From: Thermoproteota archaeon
Lineage (GTDB): Archaea > Korarchaeota > Korarchaeia > Korarchaeales > Korarchaeaceae
DNA: 34,457 nt
Direction: 5' to 3'
Assembly (NCBI GenBank): GCA_027491395.1
Contig: JAOZFI010000018.1
Span: 1 to 34,457, forward strand
Position numbers and translations under genes: made by a program. Positions 3,210 through 22,588 of the stretch are shown here, one piece after another (position 1 is the first letter of the stretch; every line of letters begins with the position of its first letter). Under the pieces are notes generated by a model. The model saw only the letters and a list, made by a program, of their open reading frames with translations, was not told where the DNA came from and made no database searches.

Positions 3210-4094
3210 TTAGTCATGGGCCCTCTCCGGTAGGTGCTCACTCTCCCTACCACCTAGGGTGAGGCACCGGAGCACGCACCACCTCTCCTCCCGGGCCCTC
3301 AGTCCTAGACAGATGAGCAGCCCAAGCGGGAAGATCGCGCCCCAGTAGTGGTACTTGACCACCTCCCAATGCGACTCAGCTATCCTCTCCATGGCGTTAC
3401 CGAAGCTGTCCGCATCCCTCACATTCACAAAAGTGCCTCCCGTCATTTCCGCCATCTTCACATACAGGGGCCTGACCGGTATCTTCCTCCCCGTCGGAAT
3501 TCCCTCGAAAGACGGTCCTCCCTCTATTCCCCCTCCGCCTAAGACCTCCTCTATGTATAGAGGGATCATTACGGATATCACATCGATCCTCACCCTCCTG
3601 CCGCTGTGGATCCAGAGGTCCTCAGCCGCCATCAAGGCGTCTCCACCGCAGTACTCGACACCGTCGGTTATGAGCACCACATGGTACTCCCTACCCTCCA
3701 ATGTAACGTTCCGGAGCAGCTTGTCAGCGAACCTCAGGGCTCCTGCTATGGGAGCCTGGTTCTTCGGCTCCACCCTACTGACCGCGCTCATCAGCTCTTC
3801 AGGAGGACTTCCCAGTGGGAGCTCCAGTCTTATGTCGTCACAGTCGTAGAAGACGATAAGGCCGACCCTGTCTTCCCCTCCCAGGGAGCTGGAGAAGCGG
3901 GAGATCGCCAGCTTAGCGGCCTCCATTTTGGATGTATTCGTACTGATGGAGAGCGGATCCTTCATGCTGATGGATGCGTCCAAGATCAGGAGGAAAGAGC
4001 GAGGTGGTTGGAGGTAGCTGACCGTGACGACGATGAACACCCACACCACGAAGAGGATCACCAAGGTCCTCAGCAGACATTCCCTAAGCCCCAT
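3210..4094 (-). CDS. Membrane-anchored von Willebrand factor A (vWA) domain protein
   Basis: N-terminal TM helix, MIDAS DASIS (DxSxS), DRVGLIVF, VVLITDG, MAEMTGGTF, C-terminal TM helix. Confidence 0.9.
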   Translation of the reverse strand: MGLRECLLRTLVILFVVWVFIVVTVSYLQPPRSFLLILDASISMKDPLSISTNTSKMEAAKLAISRFSSSLGGEDRVGLIVFYDCDDIRLELPLGSPPEELMSAVSRVEPKNQAPIAGALRFADKLLRNVTLEGREYHVVLITDGVEYCGGDALMAAEDLWIHSGRRVRIDVISVMIPLYIEEVLGGGGIEGGPSFEGIPTGRKIPVRPLYVKMAEMTGGTFVNVRDADSFGNAMERIAESHWEVVKYHYWGAIFPLGLLICLGLRAREERWCVLRCLTLGGRESEHLPERAHD

Positions 4095-4096
4095 CT

Positions 4097-6290
4097 TTAT
4101 CCCTCCCCGTTGGAACTGAAGGGATGGATGTCGTTCAACTCCAGTCCGGAGATGATCACGGCCATGATCAGCGGCCTATGCGAGGTTTGAATCGAGTAAC
4201 CAACGATCCCCCCTCCCGAGCCTCCTCTCCAGTTCACCCTTGGCCGCCCAGAGGTACATGCAATCACGAGGCCCTCTCATTAGGAGGAGTCCCCACGCCC
4301 TCTCCTCCCCATCGAATCCAGCCATGGAGTTGAGCAGCGTCATGGCGGCCATGTCTTTCAGGTTGTCAGGCGATGGCGCCTGCATGCAGGCCTCCGGATC
4401 GAGCATCGAAAGGCCGATGGTCCCGAAGGGGTCGACCCTCTCGGGATGACTTAACAGCTTCCCCAAAGTTGAGGCGGACAGCCTGAAGGAGGGATCGCCT
4501 CTCCTGTCGGAGCTGATGACGAGATCGAGTGCGATGGTCAGTTCGTCTAGAAAAGCCTCAACCGATTCCTCCATAGTCTCTCCCAGTGAAAGGGCTCTTT
4601 CCACATCTGCTAGAAGCACCACGTTGCTTCTCTTTCCCATCTCCCTAAGGGCGCCGTCTAGGCCCTCGCGCCTCGACGAGGAGAACATCACCAGTGATAT
4701 GAGGGGCACATCCAGAACCCTCACTTCATTGAGGATTGATGCAAGGGACCCCATCAGGCCGGGTCTGACGGCATCGACCAAGAGAAACGCTAGATCAGGA
4801 GGGTGTCCGCACCTCCACACCACATACTCCGCGAGAGACACGATATTTCTCCTGACTTCCCCTGCGGGGCCAGTGGTTGGATCGATTCTCAGCCTGAGCC
4901 TGCTGCCCGGTCTGAACTCCTTCAGCCCTTCCTCGAGCTGGGAGATGTTCCATGCGGAGTTGAGAGCCCTGTCCTCATGAGAGATCGCAATACCGAAGAC
5001 CTCTAGGGGCGACTGGGCCTCTCTCCGTGTTGGGATCCCTTTCCTCACCGAGAGAATGCAGAGGCAGGGTTCCTTCACCTTCCTAATCCTCCTCAGGAGT
5101 AACAGGACTATCAAGGCTCCAGTGACTGGTGAGCCGAGGTTCAAGCCCACTAACGGCTCTAGAGGGGATATTGGAAGTCCCAGAATGGGTGAGAAGCTGG
5201 ATACGAAGCTCAAGGCCGCTTGAACTACTGTGTAGGTCCCGGCAGCGGTGAACAGCGGTGCGGCCAGGTCCCACCTCCTATCCCTAGACAGGTACTCGGA
5301 TATGATGCCCGCGACCAGTCCGGCCAGCAGGGACAGAACGGGTATTGTAATTGCCGGGAGCAGCAGCGAGCTGTACCTCAGCTCGAATATGTAGGAGGTA
5401 AGGGTTGATGCTATGGCGCCTCCCGTGGCCATAGAGACCAAGAGCATCATGATGAGTCTCCTCTTCACCGAGATCCAGCTCTCCAGAATCAGAACCTCGG
5501 GTAACGCCGCCCTGAACTCCCTGAGGAGCCAGATCACTAACCCCGTCAGGGACCCGTAGCTCCCGAGGAGGAGGATTATTATCTCTTCCTCAAGCATCCC
5601 CGTCAAGGAGATGCTGAAAGGGAGCTGCAGGTGGGGAAGCATCAGGTAGAGATAGTCGAGGAGGAATGCAGCTCCCAGACCGGACACGTAAGTGAGATAT
5701 ACTCCGAGAAGGGATCTCACGACCTCGTCAGACGGCTGATCCGTGAAGTCCTTTCCGAAGAACAGGAGAGCGTGGAGGATAGAGGAGGGAACGGAGGAGA
5801 GGAGGAGGAATTTCAGGTATATGGACGGAGTTGATGGATCGAACGCCGCTAGCCTGATCGCTCCCAGAGCTAAGCCGATCATGCCGGCCAGTAGCATGAA
5901 GAGGAGGGGCTCGTACCACCTCGCCACCCTTCCCCTGGGGATCGCTCGCTGATAGACCTCTGCCACCGCCCTTATCTCCTCGTCCTCAGGCTCAACCCTA
6001 AGCTCACCCCTGACCTCTGGGAAGATAAGGCCTCTCTTCTTGGGTATCACCCTCAGCCTGTGGATTCCGGGGGCTAGTTTCTCCACTAGGGTTTCGCTCT
6101 CCCCGAGGAATGTATCGTCGAGCTCGTAGGATGCTCTGAGCCTCTCCCTCCTCCCAGAATCGTCCACGTAGTAGGTCTCTAGGATGAGCTTAGCACCCCT
6201 CTCCAATAAGGACGATCTCTTGACAGTGGATATGAGCCTCTCAGCTAGCCTCACTCCGAGATCTTCGACCCCGATAAGGATCGTCCTCAA
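4097..6290 (-). CDS. Polytopic membrane protein with a split, degenerate CetZ/tubulin-like domain. The ORF as read ends at 4176; a frameshift at 4208-4213 would extend it to 4097
   Basis: N-terminal TILIGVEDLGVRLAERL, about 8 TM helices, then collinear CetZ-like blocks DLAFLLVD, PLISLVMF, NVVLLAD, GETMEE, FGTIGLS, GLLLMRGP, and MAVIISGL in the +1 frame. Confidence 0.72.
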
Positions 6291-6454
6291 TTCTTCTCTG
6301 TCTTATCGAGATCTGGGTGCTAAAAATAGGTGGAAGAGTGAAGATGTAGACCTTCGCATCTGACTTGGTGCCCGGCCAATCCCTGCATGAACGCGGTTCA
6401 CCCCGGCGTGGTGAAATTTTTGTTGGACAGGTCGGGGTTACTTAGAGGGAAAAC

Positions 6455-7906
6455 TTGAGGGTAACCCTGACGCTGGGCAAGGTCTACTTGGAACCTGAAT
6501 TCGTTCCCATCCTCCATAACCGGTCAGGCAGCGATGATGTCAGGAGGGCTGAGTGGGACGAGGAGTACGTGATAAGGGAGGGGGTGAAACTCGCCACCAA
6601 CTGCTCCACATTCCTAGGAAGGGAGCTGAGAGGCTCGGTGCCCACGGTGGAGAACCCTTGCCCGGGTTTCCTAGGGAGGAAGGTGAGAAAGGTACTGAAG
6701 GATGCGATCTGGGAGGAGAGGATCTACTCGTCAGGCCTGAGGTCCATCAGACTGTCTAAGGTGGTCGAGGTCAGCCCCGGACTCTCAAGCGATCTCTATC
6801 GCCTAGCTTCTGAGTGGCCCGATTTGGCCGGGGAGTTCAAGGGAGCCATAAATGACGAACTGAAGAGAAGGGAGATCCCGAACATCAGGGCTTCGAGGTT
6901 CTTCACCGAGGTGTACTTCCCGGCCTCTGTGGAGGATATGCCCTTGGACCTAGTCAAGGAGCTGATCTCTCCTCTGAAGCTGAAGATGAGGAAACCTGAC
7001 GTTCTAGAGCACAGGCTCTACGATACCATCTTCTCCTCGGTAGACGGTGTGCTGGTGATGATGTCCCTCGGCAGGAGCAGGCAGGTGAACAAGAAGGTCA
7101 GGAAGAGGGTCAGGGGCATGCTCAGGATGGGCATAGATCTGGTGCTCGCCCAGAAGGTGTTCTACACCAGCTCATCGCTCTGGTTCCATGGGGAGTGGAG
7201 CCTCATCAACGGCCTCATGATCCTGAATCCCGAGGTGCTCAGGAACGTCACGGGATGGCGGGACGCGACCTTCGGCTCCACGTACTCCCACCTCTTGAGG
7301 AACTTCGACGTGGAGAGGAGATTTAGGAGATACATAGAGGGTTTCTGGCTCCCCACTCTGGACCTGAAGAAGGCGGTGAGGATATCTGTTAACCTCTTCA
7401 AGCTTGGAGCGTCGCAACCCAACGTGGACGACGTGCTTGTCACGCTGGAGGAGAGGGAGTGCGCCATCTTGCAGGCCCTGGCCGCCAAGGAGTTCCTGGA
7501 CGGGAAGTTCATGGGCAGGTCCGATTACGCCAAGAGGGTGGCTGAGGTCCTGTGCCTATACTTCCATCAGGGTAACTCCAGCTCCCTGAGGAACTGCGTC
7601 AGGGGAAGGGGGAGCTTGGCTGAGAAGCTGGAGGCCCGTGAAGAGAGAGAGGGCCTCAGCCTTCCAGAGATCGTGACCCTGCTCTCACCCATCTACAGGG
7701 GGGAGAGGGCGGAGTACGAGGACGACCTGGGGAAGCTCACCAGGCTCAATCTGGTGAGGTCTAGGCGCGTCAGGAGGAGGGGGAAGGGGAGCAGGACCGT
7801 CAGGATATACGAGCTGGTCGCTCTAAGGAGGTCCCTCATGCTGCTCCTCGATCAGGTCAGGAAGGAGATCATGCTCCTTCTAGAGGGCGACTTGGACATA
7901 AGATGA
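6455..7906 (+). CDS. Hypothetical 483-aa protein with a probable C-terminal winged helix
   Basis: Long ORF with host codon usage; C-terminus GLSLPEIVTLL...LGKLTRLNLVRSRRV..RGKGSRTVRIYEL resembles a wHTH. Confidence 0.7.
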   Translation: MRVTLTLGKVYLEPEFVPILHNRSGSDDVRRAEWDEEYVIREGVKLATNCSTFLGRELRGSVPTVENPCPGFLGRKVRKVLKDAIWEERIYSSGLRSIRLSKVVEVSPGLSSDLYRLASEWPDLAGEFKGAINDELKRREIPNIRASRFFTEVYFPASVEDMPLDLVKELISPLKLKMRKPDVLEHRLYDTIFSSVDGVLVMMSLGRSRQVNKKVRKRVRGMLRMGIDLVLAQKVFYTSSSLWFHGEWSLINGLMILNPEVLRNVTGWRDATFGSTYSHLLRNFDVERRFRRYIEGFWLPTLDLKKAVRISVNLFKLGASQPNVDDVLVTLEERECAILQALAAKEFLDGKFMGRSDYAKRVAEVLCLYFHQGNSSSLRNCVRGRGSLAEKLEAREEREGLSLPEIVTLLSPIYRGERAEYEDDLGKLTRLNLVRSRRVRRRGKGSRTVRIYELVALRRSLMLLLDQVRKEIMLLLEGDLDIR

Positions 7907-8218: not shown

Positions 8219-9727
8219 ATGGGCTTTATCGCTGAAGTCGAGAGGGAAGTTGAGAGGGCCTCTAGACTACTTGGCTTGGAGATTAGGAGGAGTGTCCCCA
8301 AGCGGATGAGAGTAGTCGAGGATCTTCCCAGCAATGGGTGCACTCGTAGGGAAGGCGACGCCCTCCTAGTATCCGCCAAATTGGCTGGGGACGTGCTCCC
8401 GTATGTATTGGCGAAGGAAGCTGCGATCTCTCTAATGGTGCCAGAGGTGGATGAGGTCCCCCAGGTTCATGACTTGGCGTGGATATACTCTTCAGCCCCC
8501 AGAGAACTCTGGGAGAGGTGTAGAATCCCGCCTGGGAGCCCATTTCACGATTATGATCCCTACAGGCTTTTCTCCTTGGTCCCCTCTAAGGAGAGGAACA
8601 AGGTGCTCGGAACCATCATCAGGATAGTGAACGCCTCGGCTAGGCTGGGCAACTTAGAGTTCCCGATGTACATGGCTCTCCTCTACAAGATCGTCGGTTC
8701 TAGCGTTGGTCTCTCTGACTCTGACGTGAAGCTGATCCGGATAATCTCAGAGAATCCACGCGCCACCTCTGACTACATCAGGAGGAGGGGTATGGGAGGA
8801 TCCTCCTTGACGAAGTCCATGGGGAAGTTGAGGGCTCTGAGGATGATATCCGGTCCAGAGAACGTGGATTATCTTAAACTAGGGCTGTCTACCCTTCTGA
8901 TATCGTTCTCCAACCGAAAGGAGTGCAGAAAGGCTTTATGGAGGTTTCCGTACACGCGCAGCATGCTGGTACCTGTGTCGAGCGAGATCGACGCCTATGC
9001 ATACCTCTCATACCCGTATGAAGGGATGGAGGATCTGCTCTCGCTTCGGAACCTTGGATTGGTTGTATTCCTAGTTAAGGAAACCCTCCTGAGATTCAAT
9101 TTCGACCCCGTCAGGGACCCATTCGAGGCGATAAATCTGGCCACCCCTCAAGAGTTTGGAGAAAAGGCGGAGTTCATTGCCACCTCGTCTCCACCTGTCC
9201 GAGTTGATGAGCTCGATTTGGACGTGCTTAATTTCGTCCTCGAGGAGGGAAAGGTGTCTGCCACTATCCTGACCAAGAAGGGGGTTCCGGAAGCTAGGTC
9301 CAGGCTCAGAAAGCTGAGGGGGGCCGGAATCATTACCAGTCTCTATCGGTTGACGTTTCCCATGGGCGTGGAGAAGGCGATCGTCCTAGTGGAGGGTGGG
9401 CCTAGGGAGATGGATACCCTGTTGGGGGTGCTGGGATCCGGAGGATCGGTGATGGTTCAGCACCTAGAGGGCGAGGTCTCCTACCTGATGGGCGTGCTTA
9501 TGGCCCCTCCGGAGATTAGGGGAGATATCCTCAGAGTGGTCAGGACCGTATACGGTGAAAGAGTGCTTCTGGCCGAGGATTTCGTGGACATTGAGCCGGG
9601 TTGGAGGCTCCCTACAGATCTGTGGGACGAGGGGTCGCAGAAATTCTTGTGGAGGGAACCCCTCGAGAGGTTAAAGGGTGATCTCGAGGCGTGCCTTCCT
9701 CAATCCCGGCCGATCCCACGACGATAA
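8219..9727 (+). CDS. Large putative transcription regulator with two Lrp/AsnC-like HTH-plus-ferredoxin-fold units (paralogue 1)
   Basis: LSDSDVKLIRIISENPRAT...VDYLKLGL and VDELDLDVLNFVLEEGK...RLRKLRGAGII. Confidence 0.72.
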   Translation: MGFIAEVEREVERASRLLGLEIRRSVPKRMRVVEDLPSNGCTRREGDALLVSAKLAGDVLPYVLAKEAAISLMVPEVDEVPQVHDLAWIYSSAPRELWERCRIPPGSPFHDYDPYRLFSLVPSKERNKVLGTIIRIVNASARLGNLEFPMYMALLYKIVGSSVGLSDSDVKLIRIISENPRATSDYIRRRGMGGSSLTKSMGKLRALRMISGPENVDYLKLGLSTLLISFSNRKECRKALWRFPYTRSMLVPVSSEIDAYAYLSYPYEGMEDLLSLRNLGLVVFLVKETLLRFNFDPVRDPFEAINLATPQEFGEKAEFIATSSPPVRVDELDLDVLNFVLEEGKVSATILTKKGVPEARSRLRKLRGAGIITSLYRLTFPMGVEKAIVLVEGGPREMDTLLGVLGSGGSVMVQHLEGEVSYLMGVLMAPPEIRGDILRVVRTVYGERVLLAEDFVDIEPGWRLPTDLWDEGSQKFLWREPLERLKGDLEACLPQSRPIPRR

Positions 9728-9801
9728 GTGGTAATCACATCAGACGGGCCCGGGAACTGGTGGAGGAAAGGTAATATTGGTTGGGGAGGTTGAACAACCG
9801 A

Positions 9802-11292
9802 ATGGATCCAGTTAGTGAGCTGCACGCGAAGATCGAGGATGTCTCTAAGTCGACTGGATTGGAGATCCGCAGACCTATCCCCAAGGAGGTGAGGATCGTC
9901 GACGACGTGCCTGGGGGCAGATGCACCGGTTACGATGGAGAGGCCCTCCTCGTAGCTAGGGGAGTGGTCAAGTGGCTTCCTCAGGTCCTGAAAAAGGAGG
10001 CGGTGATCCTACATACCGTCCAGGGGGTGGATGTTGTACCTCAGGTGCACGATGTGGCTTGGTACTACTCGGGATCCCCCAAGAAGCTGTGGTTGAGGTG
10101 TAGAATTCCCCCAGAAGGTCCGTTCCATGATTACGATCCATACGAACTCCTCTCGCTCATCCAGGAGGGAGAGATGGATAGGGTCGTGGGGAACCTGCTT
10201 AAGATAGTCAACCTAGCCGCTGAGAGGGGATCCCTGGACTTCGAAACTTACGTGGCACTCCTCAACAGGATCGCTGGGATGATGGTGAGGATCACCGAGA
10301 GCGATGCCAAGATAATGGAGATCATCTCAAGGAACCCTCTGGCTACCGATAGGGAGATCAGGGGCATGGGGATAACCGGAGCCACGCTGAGCAGGTCTTT
10401 GAAGAAGCTGAGGATGCTTGGCATGATATTCGGACCCGAGAACGTGGATCACTGGAAGTTAGGTCTGACGACCCTCCTCATCACGTATCCCAACAACAGA
10501 GAGTGCAGGAAGGCCTTCTGGAGGTTTCCGTACACCTATAGCGCGTACATCCCGGTCTCATCAAAGGCGCACGTGAGGGCATATTTGTCCTACCCCTATC
10601 AGGGTCTTGATGCCCTGAGAGGCGCGCTAGATGGAAGGATCCCGCTGTATCTCGTGAAGGACGCAGCCTTCGGCCTCTCTCTCGATGCTGGGAGGAGCCC
10701 GTATGATTCGGTGGAGGAGTTGTCCAGGCCCCAGCCTAGGGGGAGGGACCTGAGCATTCTCGTGAAGAGGCCAGAGTCCAACCTCGACAGGAACGATTTG
10801 AGGATACTTAACCTAGTCTTCAAGCACGGGAAGGTCACTCACAAGCTCCTGAAGAGGGAGAGAATTCCTGATCCGAAGAAGAGGCTCGGCCGACTTAGGA
10901 AGGACGGTTACATAATCAGGATGTACTTCCACGGGATCCCCAAGGGCATGGAAAAACTCATGCTGATAGTGAGGGCCTCCCATGATGAGATGGTACCTTT
11001 CCACTCCTTCCTGAGGTCGGTTGGATCGGTACTCACCCATTACATAGAGGGGGATGACTTCGAGGGACTGCTATCTCTCCTCGTCACTAGGCCAGAAGTG
11101 AGGGGGGATCTCATTTGGGCTGTGAAGTCCGTTTACGGAGATCAACTCGTCTTGGCGGAGGATTTCTTGGATATAAGTCCCGGTTGGAGGCTCCCCATAG
11201 ATCTGTGGGACGAGGAAAGTGGGACCTTCATATGGGAGGACCCGGTCATCAGATTGGAGAGGGATCTCGAGGCCTGCTACAAAAAATTGTGA
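9802..11292 (+). CDS. Large putative transcription regulator, double Lrp/AsnC-like (paralogue 2)
   Basis: Collinear with 8219-9727 (VPQVHD.AW.YS, PFHDYDPY, GPENVD, ECRKA.WRFPYT, PGWRLP.DLWDE); ATG at 9802 follows GGGGAGGT. Confidence 0.72.
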   Translation: MDPVSELHAKIEDVSKSTGLEIRRPIPKEVRIVDDVPGGRCTGYDGEALLVARGVVKWLPQVLKKEAVILHTVQGVDVVPQVHDVAWYYSGSPKKLWLRCRIPPEGPFHDYDPYELLSLIQEGEMDRVVGNLLKIVNLAAERGSLDFETYVALLNRIAGMMVRITESDAKIMEIISRNPLATDREIRGMGITGATLSRSLKKLRMLGMIFGPENVDHWKLGLTTLLITYPNNRECRKAFWRFPYTYSAYIPVSSKAHVRAYLSYPYQGLDALRGALDGRIPLYLVKDAAFGLSLDAGRSPYDSVEELSRPQPRGRDLSILVKRPESNLDRNDLRILNLVFKHGKVTHKLLKRERIPDPKKRLGRLRKDGYIIRMYFHGIPKGMEKLMLIVRASHDEMVPFHSFLRSVGSVLTHYIEGDDFEGLLSLLVTRPEVRGDLIWAVKSVYGDQLVLAEDFLDISPGWRLPIDLWDEESGTFIWEDPVIRLERDLEACYKKL

Positions 11293-11717: not shown

Positions 11718-13046
11718 ATGTTAGGGGGCTTCCTCAGGAAGCGTGCTGTACTGGCACTGATGAGGCTGACTGGCCGGGACTTCAGGCGGGAACTCAGGAC
11801 GATAGAGTCCATAATGCGCGGGGATATGCCATTGGAAGATTTCGTTAGAGAATCCCTGAGATCCCTCTTTGAGTACGCTAAAAAGAAGGTACCGCATTAC
11901 TCTCGGCTGTTGAGGGACTTAGAAGACCCACTAACCCATTTTGACAGGATCCCTGTCCTCAGAAGATCCTTCGTCCAGGCTCACATCGATGATCTAACCT
12001 CCACAGACATGGAAAGGATGATGGGGGTATTAACCGGGACCACTGGAGGATCAACGGCAAGGCCCATAAGGTTCTTCAGGGATGTGAGATCCTATCGCTG
12101 GAGTAAGGCCACGGAGGTCTTCTATTACAGTTGGTTCTTGGGGATAGATCTGCTGAAGGCTAAGAAAATGATCATTTGGGGCTCGGCTGCTGAACTCCTC
12201 GGTGGTATATCTCTTCTATCCAATATGACCCACATCCTTGATAGGGCAGTCTACTTCAACGCTTACCTCATAGATCAACGGTTAATTGAGAGGGTCCTGA
12301 GGAAGCTAGAGGATTACAGGCCGGACATCCTCAGGGGACTTCCTCACTTCCTAGCTGCTGTGGCTGAGTACGCCCTCAGGAGGGGGATTGGGGGTGTTCA
12401 GGCCGAAGGCTGTGATCTCGACTGGGGAAACGCTAAACAAATGGAGGAGGGAGATAATAGAGGAGGCATTCGGTAGGGTATACAATTTCTACGGGGCCAG
12501 AGAGGCCCCGTCCATAGCTGGAGAGTGCAGCGACGGGTCCCTCCACGTTTTCTCTTTCAACAACTTAGTAGAGATCCTCGACGACTCAGGTAGGAAGGCC
12601 CCGAATAGGGTGCTCGGGAACGTCGTCGTGACTCCTCTACACAACTACGCTATGCCGCTCATAAGGTACGAGATAGGCGACATGGCTAGGGCGGTTGAGA
12701 GGAGGTGCCCCTGCGGCTCCATCCTACCGAGGATGGGTAGGGTTGAGGGCAGGACCACCGAGTTCGTGGTGAGGAGGGACGGCTCCCTCTTGGGGGGCGA
12801 GTTCTTCGAGGGGGTGTTCAGGGTCGAGGGTTGGGTCAGGGAGTTCCAAGTTATCTAAGAGGATCTAGACACTCTGAGGATCCTCGTCACACCCGAGGAA
12901 GGTAAGAAAATTTCACTCTCCGCGGTTGAGGGAAGGTGAGGAAGGTACTAGGCGATGTGACCGTGAGGTGGGAGCTAGTGGACAGCGTGCCTAGACCAGC
13001 CTCGGGGAAGTTTATGTACGTGATATCGAAGGTCGATCGGACCTAG
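11718..13046 (+). pseudogene. Phenylacetate-CoA ligase/CapK-like adenylate-forming enzyme, disrupted
   Basis: TTGGSTARP, YGARE, MPLIRYEIGD, VEGR and SGKF motifs are spread over different frames: extra G at 12390-12394, in-frame TAA at 12856-12858, second shift near 12930. Confidence 0.85.
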
Positions 13047-17874: not shown

Positions 17875-18279
17875 TCAGGGTCTCAGCATCACCAGCTCCA
17901 AGCCCGGTTCTACCTCTTTTATCTTCTGGAAGTCCTCATCCAAGGAAACCAAGACTTCTCCAAGCCTCAAAGCGATGGAGGCTATTAATATGTCCGCGTC
18001 ATTTACGGGGACTCCCCTCTCCCTGAGCTTCGACCATAAGAGGGAGGCGATCCTTGCATCCTCATAGGTGAACGGGATCACCAGCAGTTCGGACAGCATA
18101 CGAACGATGGCCCTCAGCTCCCTCTCGCTTCCCCTCCTAGCCAGGTAGGCTGCTCCTCTGAGTAGTTCGTAGGCTGTTATCGAAGTGACAGATATCTCCT
18201 CGATCCCTGTTTCCTCCAGTTTGCTCACGAATCCCTCGTCCTTCAGGACCTGCAGGATTGTGGAGGTGTCAAAGATCAA
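17875..18279 (-). CDS. vapC: VapC PIN toxin, intact
   Basis: IFDTS, SITAYELLRG, DADILIASIA, LVSLDEDF. Confidence 0.92.
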   Translation of the reverse strand: MIFDTSTILQVLKDEGFVSKLEETGIEEISVTSITAYELLRGAAYLARRGSERELRAIVRMLSELLVIPFTYEDARIASLLWSKLRERGVPVNDADILIASIALRLGEVLVSLDEDFQKIKEVEPGLELVMLRP

Positions 18280-18490
18280 GCTCCCTCACCCTGAATCTCC
18301 TCCTCTCCCCCATAACTATGTCCTCTATATCTGAGCTTTTCAACTTTCCAGCGTATCTCTTCAGGATTTCAAGCGATCTCTCTCTGTTCCTCCTGAGGAG
18401 CCTCATTATCACGTCGGAGAAGGACTCCCCCTCTCTCTTCAACCTCGATAGCTCCTCGTACACCTCGTCTCTCAGGGATATGTTCTTCAT
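18269..18490 (-). CDS. vapB: VapB antitoxin (DUF217-type RHH)
   Basis: MKNISLRDEVYEELSRLKREGESFSDVIMRLL; ATG at 18490 is the likely start, not 18613. Confidence 0.9.
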   Translation of the reverse strand: MKNISLRDEVYEELSRLKREGESFSDVIMRLLRRNRERSLEILKRYAGKLKSSDIEDIVMGERRRFRVRELDL

Positions 18491-18495
18491 ACGTG

Positions 18496-18520
18496 TATAT
18501 GTAATGTGAACATATAAAAG
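18496..18520 (-). promoter_or_regulatory. TATA box and overlapping inverted repeat of the vapBC operon
   Basis: TTTTATAT on the minus strand about 25 nt upstream of the ATG; TATATGT-N7-ACATATA at 18496-18516. Confidence 0.55.
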
Positions 18521-18957
18521 GGGTGGGCCGGGGTAAGTCACCAGCTTGAAGCTCCTTGAGGACCTGAGCTTACCCTCAAGCAATCGATCAGGGCCCCGGT
18601 CACAGGTCCTCATGGATCCGGAGAGCCTCTAAGTTTCCCTAGGAGCGCGATACTTGACATTGGAAGAGACGGATAATCATCAGAAGGCTAAAGACACTGA
18701 AACTCGGAAGGAAGGTCCTGCGGTTCCATAATCCGCTTGGGAGGAAAAAGAAATGCATCACGACATCGTGAAATGCCGCTAGTGAATGAGAGCGATCATC
18801 TCCGCTATTATACTCTCTTGATACACTCGCGGAGCCCTTAAATCGTTACCCACCCATCGATGGAATGGAAAAGCGTGCGGCGCAGTAAAAGAGCGCACCT
18901 GACTTGATGAAGGTTAAGGTATTTAGCTCCCTCCTCAGATAACTGAGGGTCAACGAG

Positions 18958-21949: not shown

Positions 21950-22588
21950 TCATGAAGGCTCCCTAGAAAGCCTGTCTACCTTCTCCATCCTCCCCACTGA
22001 TGCCTTCTCGTGTACTATGGCTTCTTCCACATACCTCAGGGCCTCGACCTCCGCGCCACTATCCACATGCACCTCGACCCCCTCGACCGTCCTAGCCTCC
22101 GCGCCTCTCCCGATGTAGACCTCCTCCCCGATCACATCCTGGACCTCAGCGTCCTTGCCGATCCTGACCTCCCTGCCCACTATAAGTCCCCTCACCTTGG
22201 ATCTCTTGCCCACCTCGACCTCATTTCCCGCTATCTCCTCAGCCTTGGCTGAGCCGTGAACCTTCACCTCTTCCCCAGTGATCCTCTTTGCCCTAACGCT
22301 ACCGGCGATCTCCACGTCTCCCCCTCTAATCTCCCCGTCCGACTCCAGACTACCTGCGATCTCAAGCTCTGATGCCTCTATACTGCCCGAGACCTTCATG
22401 CTTCCTGCTACCTTGATCTCCTCAGCCCTGACACTTCCCATTACCGTGCTGGAGCCACTTACCCTCATTTCATCACCTTCAGCGTCACCCTCGATCTTCA
22501 AGGATCCGCTCACCCTCACAACTCCGAATTTCACCGGTCCCTTGAGGCTGACGGATCCGCCAACGGCGAGCTCGTCTATCTCCTGCAT
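21950..22588 (-). CDS. Bactofilin-like (polymer-forming cytoskeletal) beta-helix protein
   Basis: About 17-aa repeats: VRVSGSLKIEG, MRVSGSSTVMG, IKVAGSMKVSG, LEIAGSLESDG; GGTGG RBS. Confidence 0.75.
   Translation of the reverse strand: MQEIDELAVGGSVSLKGPVKFGVVRVSGSLKIEGDAEGDEMRVSGSSTVMGSVRAEEIKVAGSMKVSGSIEASELEIAGSLESDGEIRGGDVEIAGSVRAKRITGEEVKVHGSAKAEEIAGNEVEVGKRSKVRGLIVGREVRIGKDAEVQDVIGEEVYIGRGAEARTVEGVEVHVDSGAEVEALRYVEEAIVHEKASVGRMEKVDRLSREPS

Follow-up and report, generated by a model that had tools for sequence, protein, structure and literature searches.

Could a tubulin-like protein that has lost its nucleotide-binding residues be connected, through the membrane, to a protein-binding domain outside the cell? 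The question is raised by two adjacent genes on the reverse strand of contig JAOZFI010000018.1 (assembly GCA_027491395.1) of a korarchaeal genome, of which positions 1 to 34,457 were analysed and are called the window here. The upstream gene (4176..6290 as assembled, 704 amino acids, TTG start, TAG stop at 4176–4178) was described in a first-pass annotation as coding for a CetZ-like membrane pseudo-tubulin. The downstream gene (3210..4094, 294 amino acids, ATG at 4092–4094, stop codon inside this span) encodes a membrane protein with a von Willebrand factor A (vWA) domain. Profile comparison and hydropathy bore out the description of the upstream product as a membrane protein that has a degenerate domain of the FtsZ/CetZ type. 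We propose that the two genes form an operon and that their products make up a membrane complex of a kind that combines a tubulin-like protein with a vWA protein, a tentative reading that comes close to an even call without quite reaching it.

Relationship of the upstream protein to the tubulin superfamily

No match to the upstream protein was found in Pfam, NCBIfam, PADLOC or the PDB by plain sequence search. A profile built from three full-length members of its family matched one PDB sequence, 4b45_A ("cell division protein FtsZ"), with an E value of 0.0074; we take this entry to be the structure of Haloferax CetZ2. For profile comparison, FtsZ, CetZ and other tubulin-family open reading frames (ORFs) were gathered from 41 related genomes. 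Comparison of the family alignment (A2) with 35 FtsZ, CetZ and tubulin-family ORFs using hhalign gave a probability of 97.3% (E 2.5e-11, 237 columns), pairing residues 478–725 of the homologue P0004 with tubulin-family columns 84–333. A second run against 46 ORFs gave 97.5% in local and 98.4% in global mode, and the superfamily probability over all runs was 97–99% (up to 99.0%). The controls were all negative, with 1.6% for the reversed alignment, 0.9% or less for 20 of 20 column shuffles and 0.1–0.3% for the alignment of the vWA protein, which served as an unrelated alpha/beta control against the tubulin profile. When the subfamilies were compared separately, CetZ (n=4 sequences) scored 92.7% and FtsZ (n=30) 71.7%.

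The alignment spans the GTPase-type and C-terminal domains in order, and places an FtsZ/CetZ-like domain, from strand S2 onward, at residues ~428–704 (4179..5009, hhalign 97.3–98.4%). The nearest language-model neighbours of the C-terminal part were Tubulin, CetZ and TubZ clusters (0.86–0.88), which were taken as leads only. FtsZ chains also occupied 11 of the 12 best listed ranks in a Foldseek search with a low-confidence model of P0004, none of them at E <= 0.001, and this result was counted as weak. Judged by the profile comparisons, the cytoplasmic parts of the upstream protein are homologous to, and belong to, the FtsZ/CetZ/tubulin superfamily.

Tubulin-family matches numbered 4–7 in each of the genomes G001, G005, G007, G013 and G015–G018 of the genus and two in G000, which carries the window. 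The two FtsZ proteins of G000 are encoded on contig C37. At one locus of G013 (L045, G013:C1:899500-906800) five FtsZ-like paralogues of 323–342 amino acids lie in tandem.

An apparently split fold and lost GTP motifs

In the global alignment, the C-terminal domain begins at S2 (GIAIS, against iAiNT in the family) and lacks S1, the T1 loop and H1. Columns 1–21 of the protein (window sequence RTILIGVEDLGVRLAERL) aligned to the missing tubulin columns 28–48 (hhalign, P 6.9e-5), an overlapping segment offset by 10 columns gave P 0.00089, and the remaining segments of the N-terminal domain gave P 0.12 or worse. When residues 28–427 were deleted in silico, the global score rose from 79.0 to 92.2 (E 1.4e-14 to 5.3e-17) and the number of locally aligned columns from 235 to 300; control splices in which two other 27-residue pieces were substituted brought no gain. 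Taken alone, alignment to residues 1–26 of 4b45_A did not reach significance. The N-terminal region had no Pfam match, and an atlas search with the first 125 residues gave no usable match. On the hhalign result and the splice test, candidates for S1, a degenerate T1 loop (GVEDLG) and H1 lie in residues 1–26 (6213..6290).

The first part of the putative insertion is a beta-rich, predicted cytoplasmic domain (residues ~30–115, 5946..6203), its strands being seen in the low-confidence AlphaFold model. It is followed by eight predicted transmembrane (TM) helices (residues ~126–399, 5094..5915), to which hydropathy, helices in the low-confidence model and conservation all point; seven segments pass the hydropathy threshold and one, at residues 344–366, is weaker. 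Stretches rich in Arg and Lys are found before TM1, in a conserved EYLSRxRRW loop and after TM8 (RRIRKVK), and by the positive-inside rule both ends of the protein are predicted to be cytoplasmic, with the EYLSRxRRW loop likewise on the inner side. An FtsZ-type fold looks to be split, S1–H1 lying at the N-terminus and the part from S2 on beyond TM8, with the beta domain and eight TM helices between them. Interruption of the fold by a membrane insertion of 400 residues would be an unusual domain architecture in the superfamily.

The residues that bind and hydrolyse GTP in this superfamily are replaced. At T4, where GGGTGSG is expected, the window protein reads DAVRPGLMGS, T6 has Val in place of Asn (ADVER in the window protein, VDIER in P0004), and the acidic residues of the T7 motif N-x-D-x-x-D are replaced (FRLSAS). 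T1 (GVEDLG) is partly degenerate. Other members of the family are equally degenerate, P0004, P0006 and P0010 at T4 and T7 among them, except for a fragment, P0011, with GVGGKA in T1. As read from these alignments the signatures for GTP binding and hydrolysis are lost and, because the motifs are degenerate across members, pseudo-tubulin is a fair name. Since the residues are replaced, the domain would be a nucleotide-blind scaffold and not a dynamic polymer; its apparent independence of GTP points to a role as a scaffold or adaptor rather than as a dynamic filament.

The vWA protein and its predicted orientation

The downstream protein matches Pfam VWA_2 (E 2.7e-14, 54.1 bits against a cut-off of 27), and its best PDB relative is 4rck_A, a "hypothetical membrane spanning protein" (E 0.002). 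The first-pass annotation had given it a metal ion-dependent adhesion site (MIDAS) of the form DxSxS...TDG, two cysteines that could form a disulfide, TM helices at both ends and, as a suggestion, an external domain, most of which held on closer examination. The DxSxS residues D39, S41 and S43 (3966..3980) and the TDG residues T143-D144-G145 are present, but the MIDAS threonine is replaced in the window copy. Both cysteines, Cys85 (FYDCDD) and Cys149 (EYCGGD), are kept in 4/4 orthologues, as are Cys6, a cysteine in the second hydrophobic segment and the WCVLRC of the tail. TM helix 1 covers residues 7–28 (4011..4076, hydropathy 2.76). The shorter C-terminal hydrophobic segment covers residues about 249–266 (3297..3350), or 251–266 on a narrower count, with a hydropathy of 1.69 in the window copy and 1.83–1.85 in the orthologues, and is followed by the Arg-rich tail. 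Lys and Arg residues number six on the two tails and two on the domain side, and two sequons, N53-x-S and N129-x-T, are kept in 4/4 orthologues. An external domain fits the positive-inside rule and the conserved sequons, and the vWA domain probably faces outward, these features being indications and not proof.

A genome-wide six-frame search with VWA_2 found a second vWA gene in G000 (G000:C37:47290-47586, reverse strand). The same search missed the vWA gene of the window, though this gene passes the Pfam cut-off in hmmscan, which looks like a gap in sensitivity.

The junction between the two genes

As assembled, the upstream ORF stops 81 nt ahead of the vWA start. The first-pass annotation had placed a corrected stop, the TAA at 4097–4099, 2 nt from the vWA ATG with GGGGAGGG just upstream. 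These positions and the Shine-Dalgarno-like motif (4101..4108, read from the sequence) stand, but the TAA is in another frame than the upstream ORF and becomes its stop only when a frameshift is read through. The out-of-frame 3' tail (4097..4216, last ~36 residues) ends at this TAA. The homologues P0004, P0006 and P0010 have a C-terminal tail with which its 36 residues align, and the family profile matches it at 4106–4216 (E 1.7e-5, profile positions 693–729). It corresponds to the two beta strands that end the FtsZ-type C-terminal domain and aligns with the terminal strands of the tubulin-family profile. The extra base lies in a run of six G on the coding strand (six C on the forward strand, 4208..4213). 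The run is one base shorter in the sister genome G002, which is 94–96% identical and has five G, and in contigs of two public runs (X2 and X3); these and a further set, X1, are contigs from related strains, 95–99% alike, and not reads of the window strain. By its homologues and by the five-G run of G002, the tail belongs to the upstream gene.

With the shift read through, the upstream gene has 730 codons and ends in TAA, followed by AG (4095–4096) and then the vWA ATG. The junction is also tight in G002 (TAG, 2 nt, ATG) and in G006 (ATGA overlap), where contig C218 opens within the membrane-protein gene, 57 residues before its end, and continues into the vWA gene, so the tight juxtaposition first noted in the window is found in all three genomes. 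GGAGG motifs are likewise present upstream of the vWA start in G002 and G006. An A/T-rich, TATA-like box recognised by eye ~31–39 nt upstream of the TTG (6321..6329) is a candidate archaeal promoter.

A second additional base was seen in the same assembly, in a G run near 12394. It splits a coenzyme A ligase-like gene (11718–12858, forward strand, weak match to the NCBIfam DVU_1553 family) into two overlapping ORFs that form one frame in G002. Because of this second extra G, the shift at 4208–4213 is possibly a homopolymer error, and both frameshifts in the assembly may be errors of this kind.

Distribution, linkage and selection

Two intact full-length homologues of the upstream protein, P0004 (66% identical) and P0006 (36%), were found. 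A word-indexed protein search with the protein itself recovered only the protein and one homologue, and a search of the same kind with the C-terminal domain profile found nothing new; scans of genome and metagenome contigs recovered the G002 contig only. Among the related genomes, close homologues are present in G002 (95%) and G006 (66%) and a distant one in G003 (~30%), with none in the other 37 genomes searched. Orthologues of the vWA gene were confined to G000, G002 and G006 (3/41), which are exactly the genomes with a close homologue of the upstream gene; they are 94% identical in G002 and 69% in G006, P0013 and P0014. The linkage that the first-pass annotation had suggested checking holds in part, as the pair is adjacent in all three genomes with close homologues but the distant G003 homologue lacks a vWA neighbour.

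The genome G012 lacks the pair, and its orthologue of the gene divergent from the pair in the window (83% identical) adjoins a different gene. The G+C content of the pair matches that of the surroundings. Between G000 and G002, the ratio of nonsynonymous to synonymous substitution rates (dN/dS) was 0.17–0.21 in three segments of the upstream gene and 0.34 in the vWA gene, with 0.04–0.71 in the neighbours. As judged from these ratios, both genes were under purifying selection until recently. The G002 copy (L008 7799-9997) contains +1 and -1 indels 905 nt apart, which put residues 196–497 out of frame before the frame is restored, and both indels recur in run contigs from two studies (X1 and X2).

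A possible membrane complex

In the complex that we envisage, the two cytoplasmic ends of the upstream protein would jointly form one FtsZ/CetZ-type fold, with ~400 residues, comprising the beta domain and the eight TM helices, inserted in the H1–S2 loop. The pseudo-tubulin domain would in this way be a nucleotide-blind scaffold pinned under the membrane. The downstream product would hold its MIDAS vWA domain between two TM helices, most likely on the outer side, and the two proteins may associate via their TM helices. The vWA domain might bind an acidic ligand outside, which could be an envelope component, another cell, a virus or an invariant Glu of the partner, predicted at the outer end of TM4. 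Its binding state could then be passed to the cytoplasmic pseudo-tubulin domain, which may self-associate or act as a non-hydrolysing subunit docked onto the two FtsZ proteins of the cell. Such a module would be accessory and not part of the core division function.

A tubulin-like domain within a polytopic membrane protein, encoded beside a vWA gene, would for that reason offer a physical route across the membrane. The more specific idea, that a membrane-bound tubulin fold without GTP binding provides FtsZ filaments with a fixed subunit for docking or capping and is set from outside by the vWA domain, is an improbable guess. If true, it would give archaea an outside-in link from surface binding to a tubulin-family cytoskeleton, and a second membrane anchor of FtsZ besides SepF. 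Computationally predicted pairs of a tubulin-like gene and a vWA gene are widespread.

Alternative explanations

A number of observations weigh against the proposed complex. Within the Pfam library, Tubulin (PF00091), CetZ_C (PF21011) and Tubulin_2 (PF13809) are unmatched by the window protein P0002 at E <= 0.01 and by P0004, P0006 and P0010 even at E <= 1; the CetZ_C model works in the same library, as it matches true CetZ ORFs of other archaea. AlphaFold2 gave no confident model, the mean predicted local distance difference test score being 38.3 for full-length P0004 (3-sequence alignment) and 34.2 for the C-terminal domain (5 sequences), and the fold is deduced from profile comparisons of a family of three to five sequences. 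A full scan of 1.84 billion representative proteins returned only eight members, and the family is confined to 4/43 genomes of the phylum, all of one genus. In G003 the homologue is divided between two overlapping ORFs, and the gene that comes after it codes not for a vWA protein but for a 401-amino-acid membrane protein with only a weak CorA-like match. The reading frame is interrupted in three of the four family genomes (one indel in G000, two in G002 and the split in G003), and the upstream gene of this assembly needs the frameshift correction described above. In the vWA protein of the window, the residue at the MIDAS threonine is Ala114, where three orthologues have NQT aligned to the Thr of 4rck_A, and the topology is drawn from hydropathy and charge rules only. 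The tiny family, the frequent frame disruption and a fold known from profile comparisons only limit the weight that the proposal can bear.

The patchy distribution, the different neighbour found in place of the pair in the orthologous flank of G012, the frequent frame disruption and the presence of genes for PIN-domain and antitoxin-like proteins nearby would suit a conflict or defence-type module, or another dispensable accessory module, a role also raised in the first-pass annotation. The vWA domain would then be an outward sensor, its membrane partner the effector and the tubulin-like domain a regulatory plug. However, neither protein nor any of six neighbours has a PADLOC match, no recognisable effector domain was found in Pfam or NCBIfam, the G+C content is like that of the surroundings, and mobile-element genes were not observed beside the pair. 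We consider this explanation unlikely.

It is distinctly unlikely that the upstream gene is simply decaying here, with a real frameshift removing the last two strands, the MIDAS threonine lost and the pair non-working. Ratios of dN/dS of 0.17–0.21 in all three segments point to function until recently, P0004 and P0006 are intact and full-length, and the coenzyme A ligase-like gene, intact in G002, is split by another +1 base in a G run, which also speaks against decay. Decay would nonetheless account for the frameshift in the assembly, for the two other indels of the sister lineage G002 that recur in contigs from two studies, for the split copy in G003 and for the Thr to Ala change in the vWA protein of the window.

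We give little credence to an arrangement in which the vWA domain is cytoplasmic and binds the pseudo-tubulin domain directly, with nothing exposed outside. The charge difference across TM1 is small, the N-terminal flank having two Arg only, the C-terminal segment is short and barely over the hydropathy threshold in the window copy, and cytoplasmic vWA regulators such as ArnB are known in other archaeal systems according to PMC5898192. Against these stand the six Lys and Arg residues on the tails versus two on the domain side, the two conserved sequons and the naming of the best PDB relative, 4rck_A, as membrane-spanning. A false-positive similarity to tubulin, with a C-terminal domain that is really an unrelated alpha/beta domain, is very improbable since, despite the missing Pfam match at E <= 1, the failure of a plain hidden Markov model of FtsZ seeds to match the pseudo-tubulin family and the low-confidence models, four independent lines (4b45_A, language-model neighbours, hhalign and Foldseek) agree on the superfamily, every hhalign control was negative, and both the GTPase-type and the C-terminal domains were aligned, in order.

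Comparison with known systems

The first-pass annotation knew of no described archaeal system of this form. That claim was wrong in kind, as operons combining FtsZl1 and vWA genes have been described in bacteria and archaea since 2010. In the original account (Makarova & Koonin 2010, PMC2875224), FtsZl1 is a divergent tubulin family of bacteria and archaea whose predicted operons usually include a vWA gene with an intact MIDAS. The linked vWA proteins are often membrane-bound or secreted, membrane remodelling is the proposed function, and a reviewer asked how components on opposite sides of the membrane could cooperate. The association is restated in PMC5898192. The integrin-like logic suggested for the window pair is the conjecture already accepted for a known class of systems, and not a new kind.

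As in the FtsZl1 systems of PMC2875224, a divergent tubulin-superfamily gene lies beside a vWA gene in the window, and both associations are patchy and stand as computational predictions. The trait of a vWA gene in the same predicted operon was found in G000, G002 and G006 and not in G003. Unlike FtsZl1 as that account presents it, the window protein falls outside the Tubulin_2 model and lacks the GTP-binding signature used to find the family, and its operon has two genes with no additional GTPase, kinase or OmpA-like gene. It is also polytopic, with the membrane part apparently inserted inside the fold, unlike the archaeal FtsZl1 protein SSO1376, for which the same source reports N-terminal TM helices, a fusion rather than an insertion. 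No match to Tubulin_2 (PF13809) over its cut-off was found in the 41 related genomes.

CetZ was the best-scoring subfamily for the window family (92.7%, n=4). Unlike the CetZ proteins, which are soluble GTPases, the window protein is predicted to be membrane-embedded and matches neither CetZ_C nor Tubulin. The available portion of a CetZ survey (PMC9856176) mentions no membrane-inserted forms or vWA neighbours.

The vWA protein resembles other membrane-spanning vWA proteins in having a single MIDAS vWA domain anchored by TM segments, with 4rck_A as the closest solved example. Such relatives are presumably those known as BatA-type. Unlike in the MoxR-vWA systems to which that label belongs, the partner in the window is a pseudo-tubulin, and no MoxR AAA+ ATPase or DUF58 protein was present among 33 window ORFs scanned against Pfam.

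In the literature searched, including the accessible parts of PMC9856176 and of PMC9723716 on Culexarchaeia, no tubulin-family protein was found described in which a polytopic membrane part is inserted internally. What is new here, as far as sequence comparison goes, is a tubulin-like component outside the FtsZl1 and CetZ models that is nucleotide-blind and polytopic by insertion within the fold.

Genomic surroundings

The gene divergent from the pair (6455-7906, forward strand) encodes a protein of 483 amino acids that matches no known family. It is a member of a lineage-specific group present in several copies per genome, with matches in 13/21 genomes of the genus. Beyond it are two tandem paralogues (8219-9727 and 9781-11292, forward strand), 46% identical and ~500 amino acids long, which contain an HTH_24 winged-helix domain and have weak Csa3/CARF-like matches in PADLOC. 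A third copy of this paralogue is located upstream of the orthologue of the divergent neighbour in G012. PIN-domain genes are found at 1613-2062 and 17875-18613, both on the reverse strand, the second adjoining a VapB-type antitoxin gene. Further along, at 21950-22588 on the reverse strand, a gene for a 212-amino-acid protein matches bactofilin, a polymer-forming family (E 9.8e-8).

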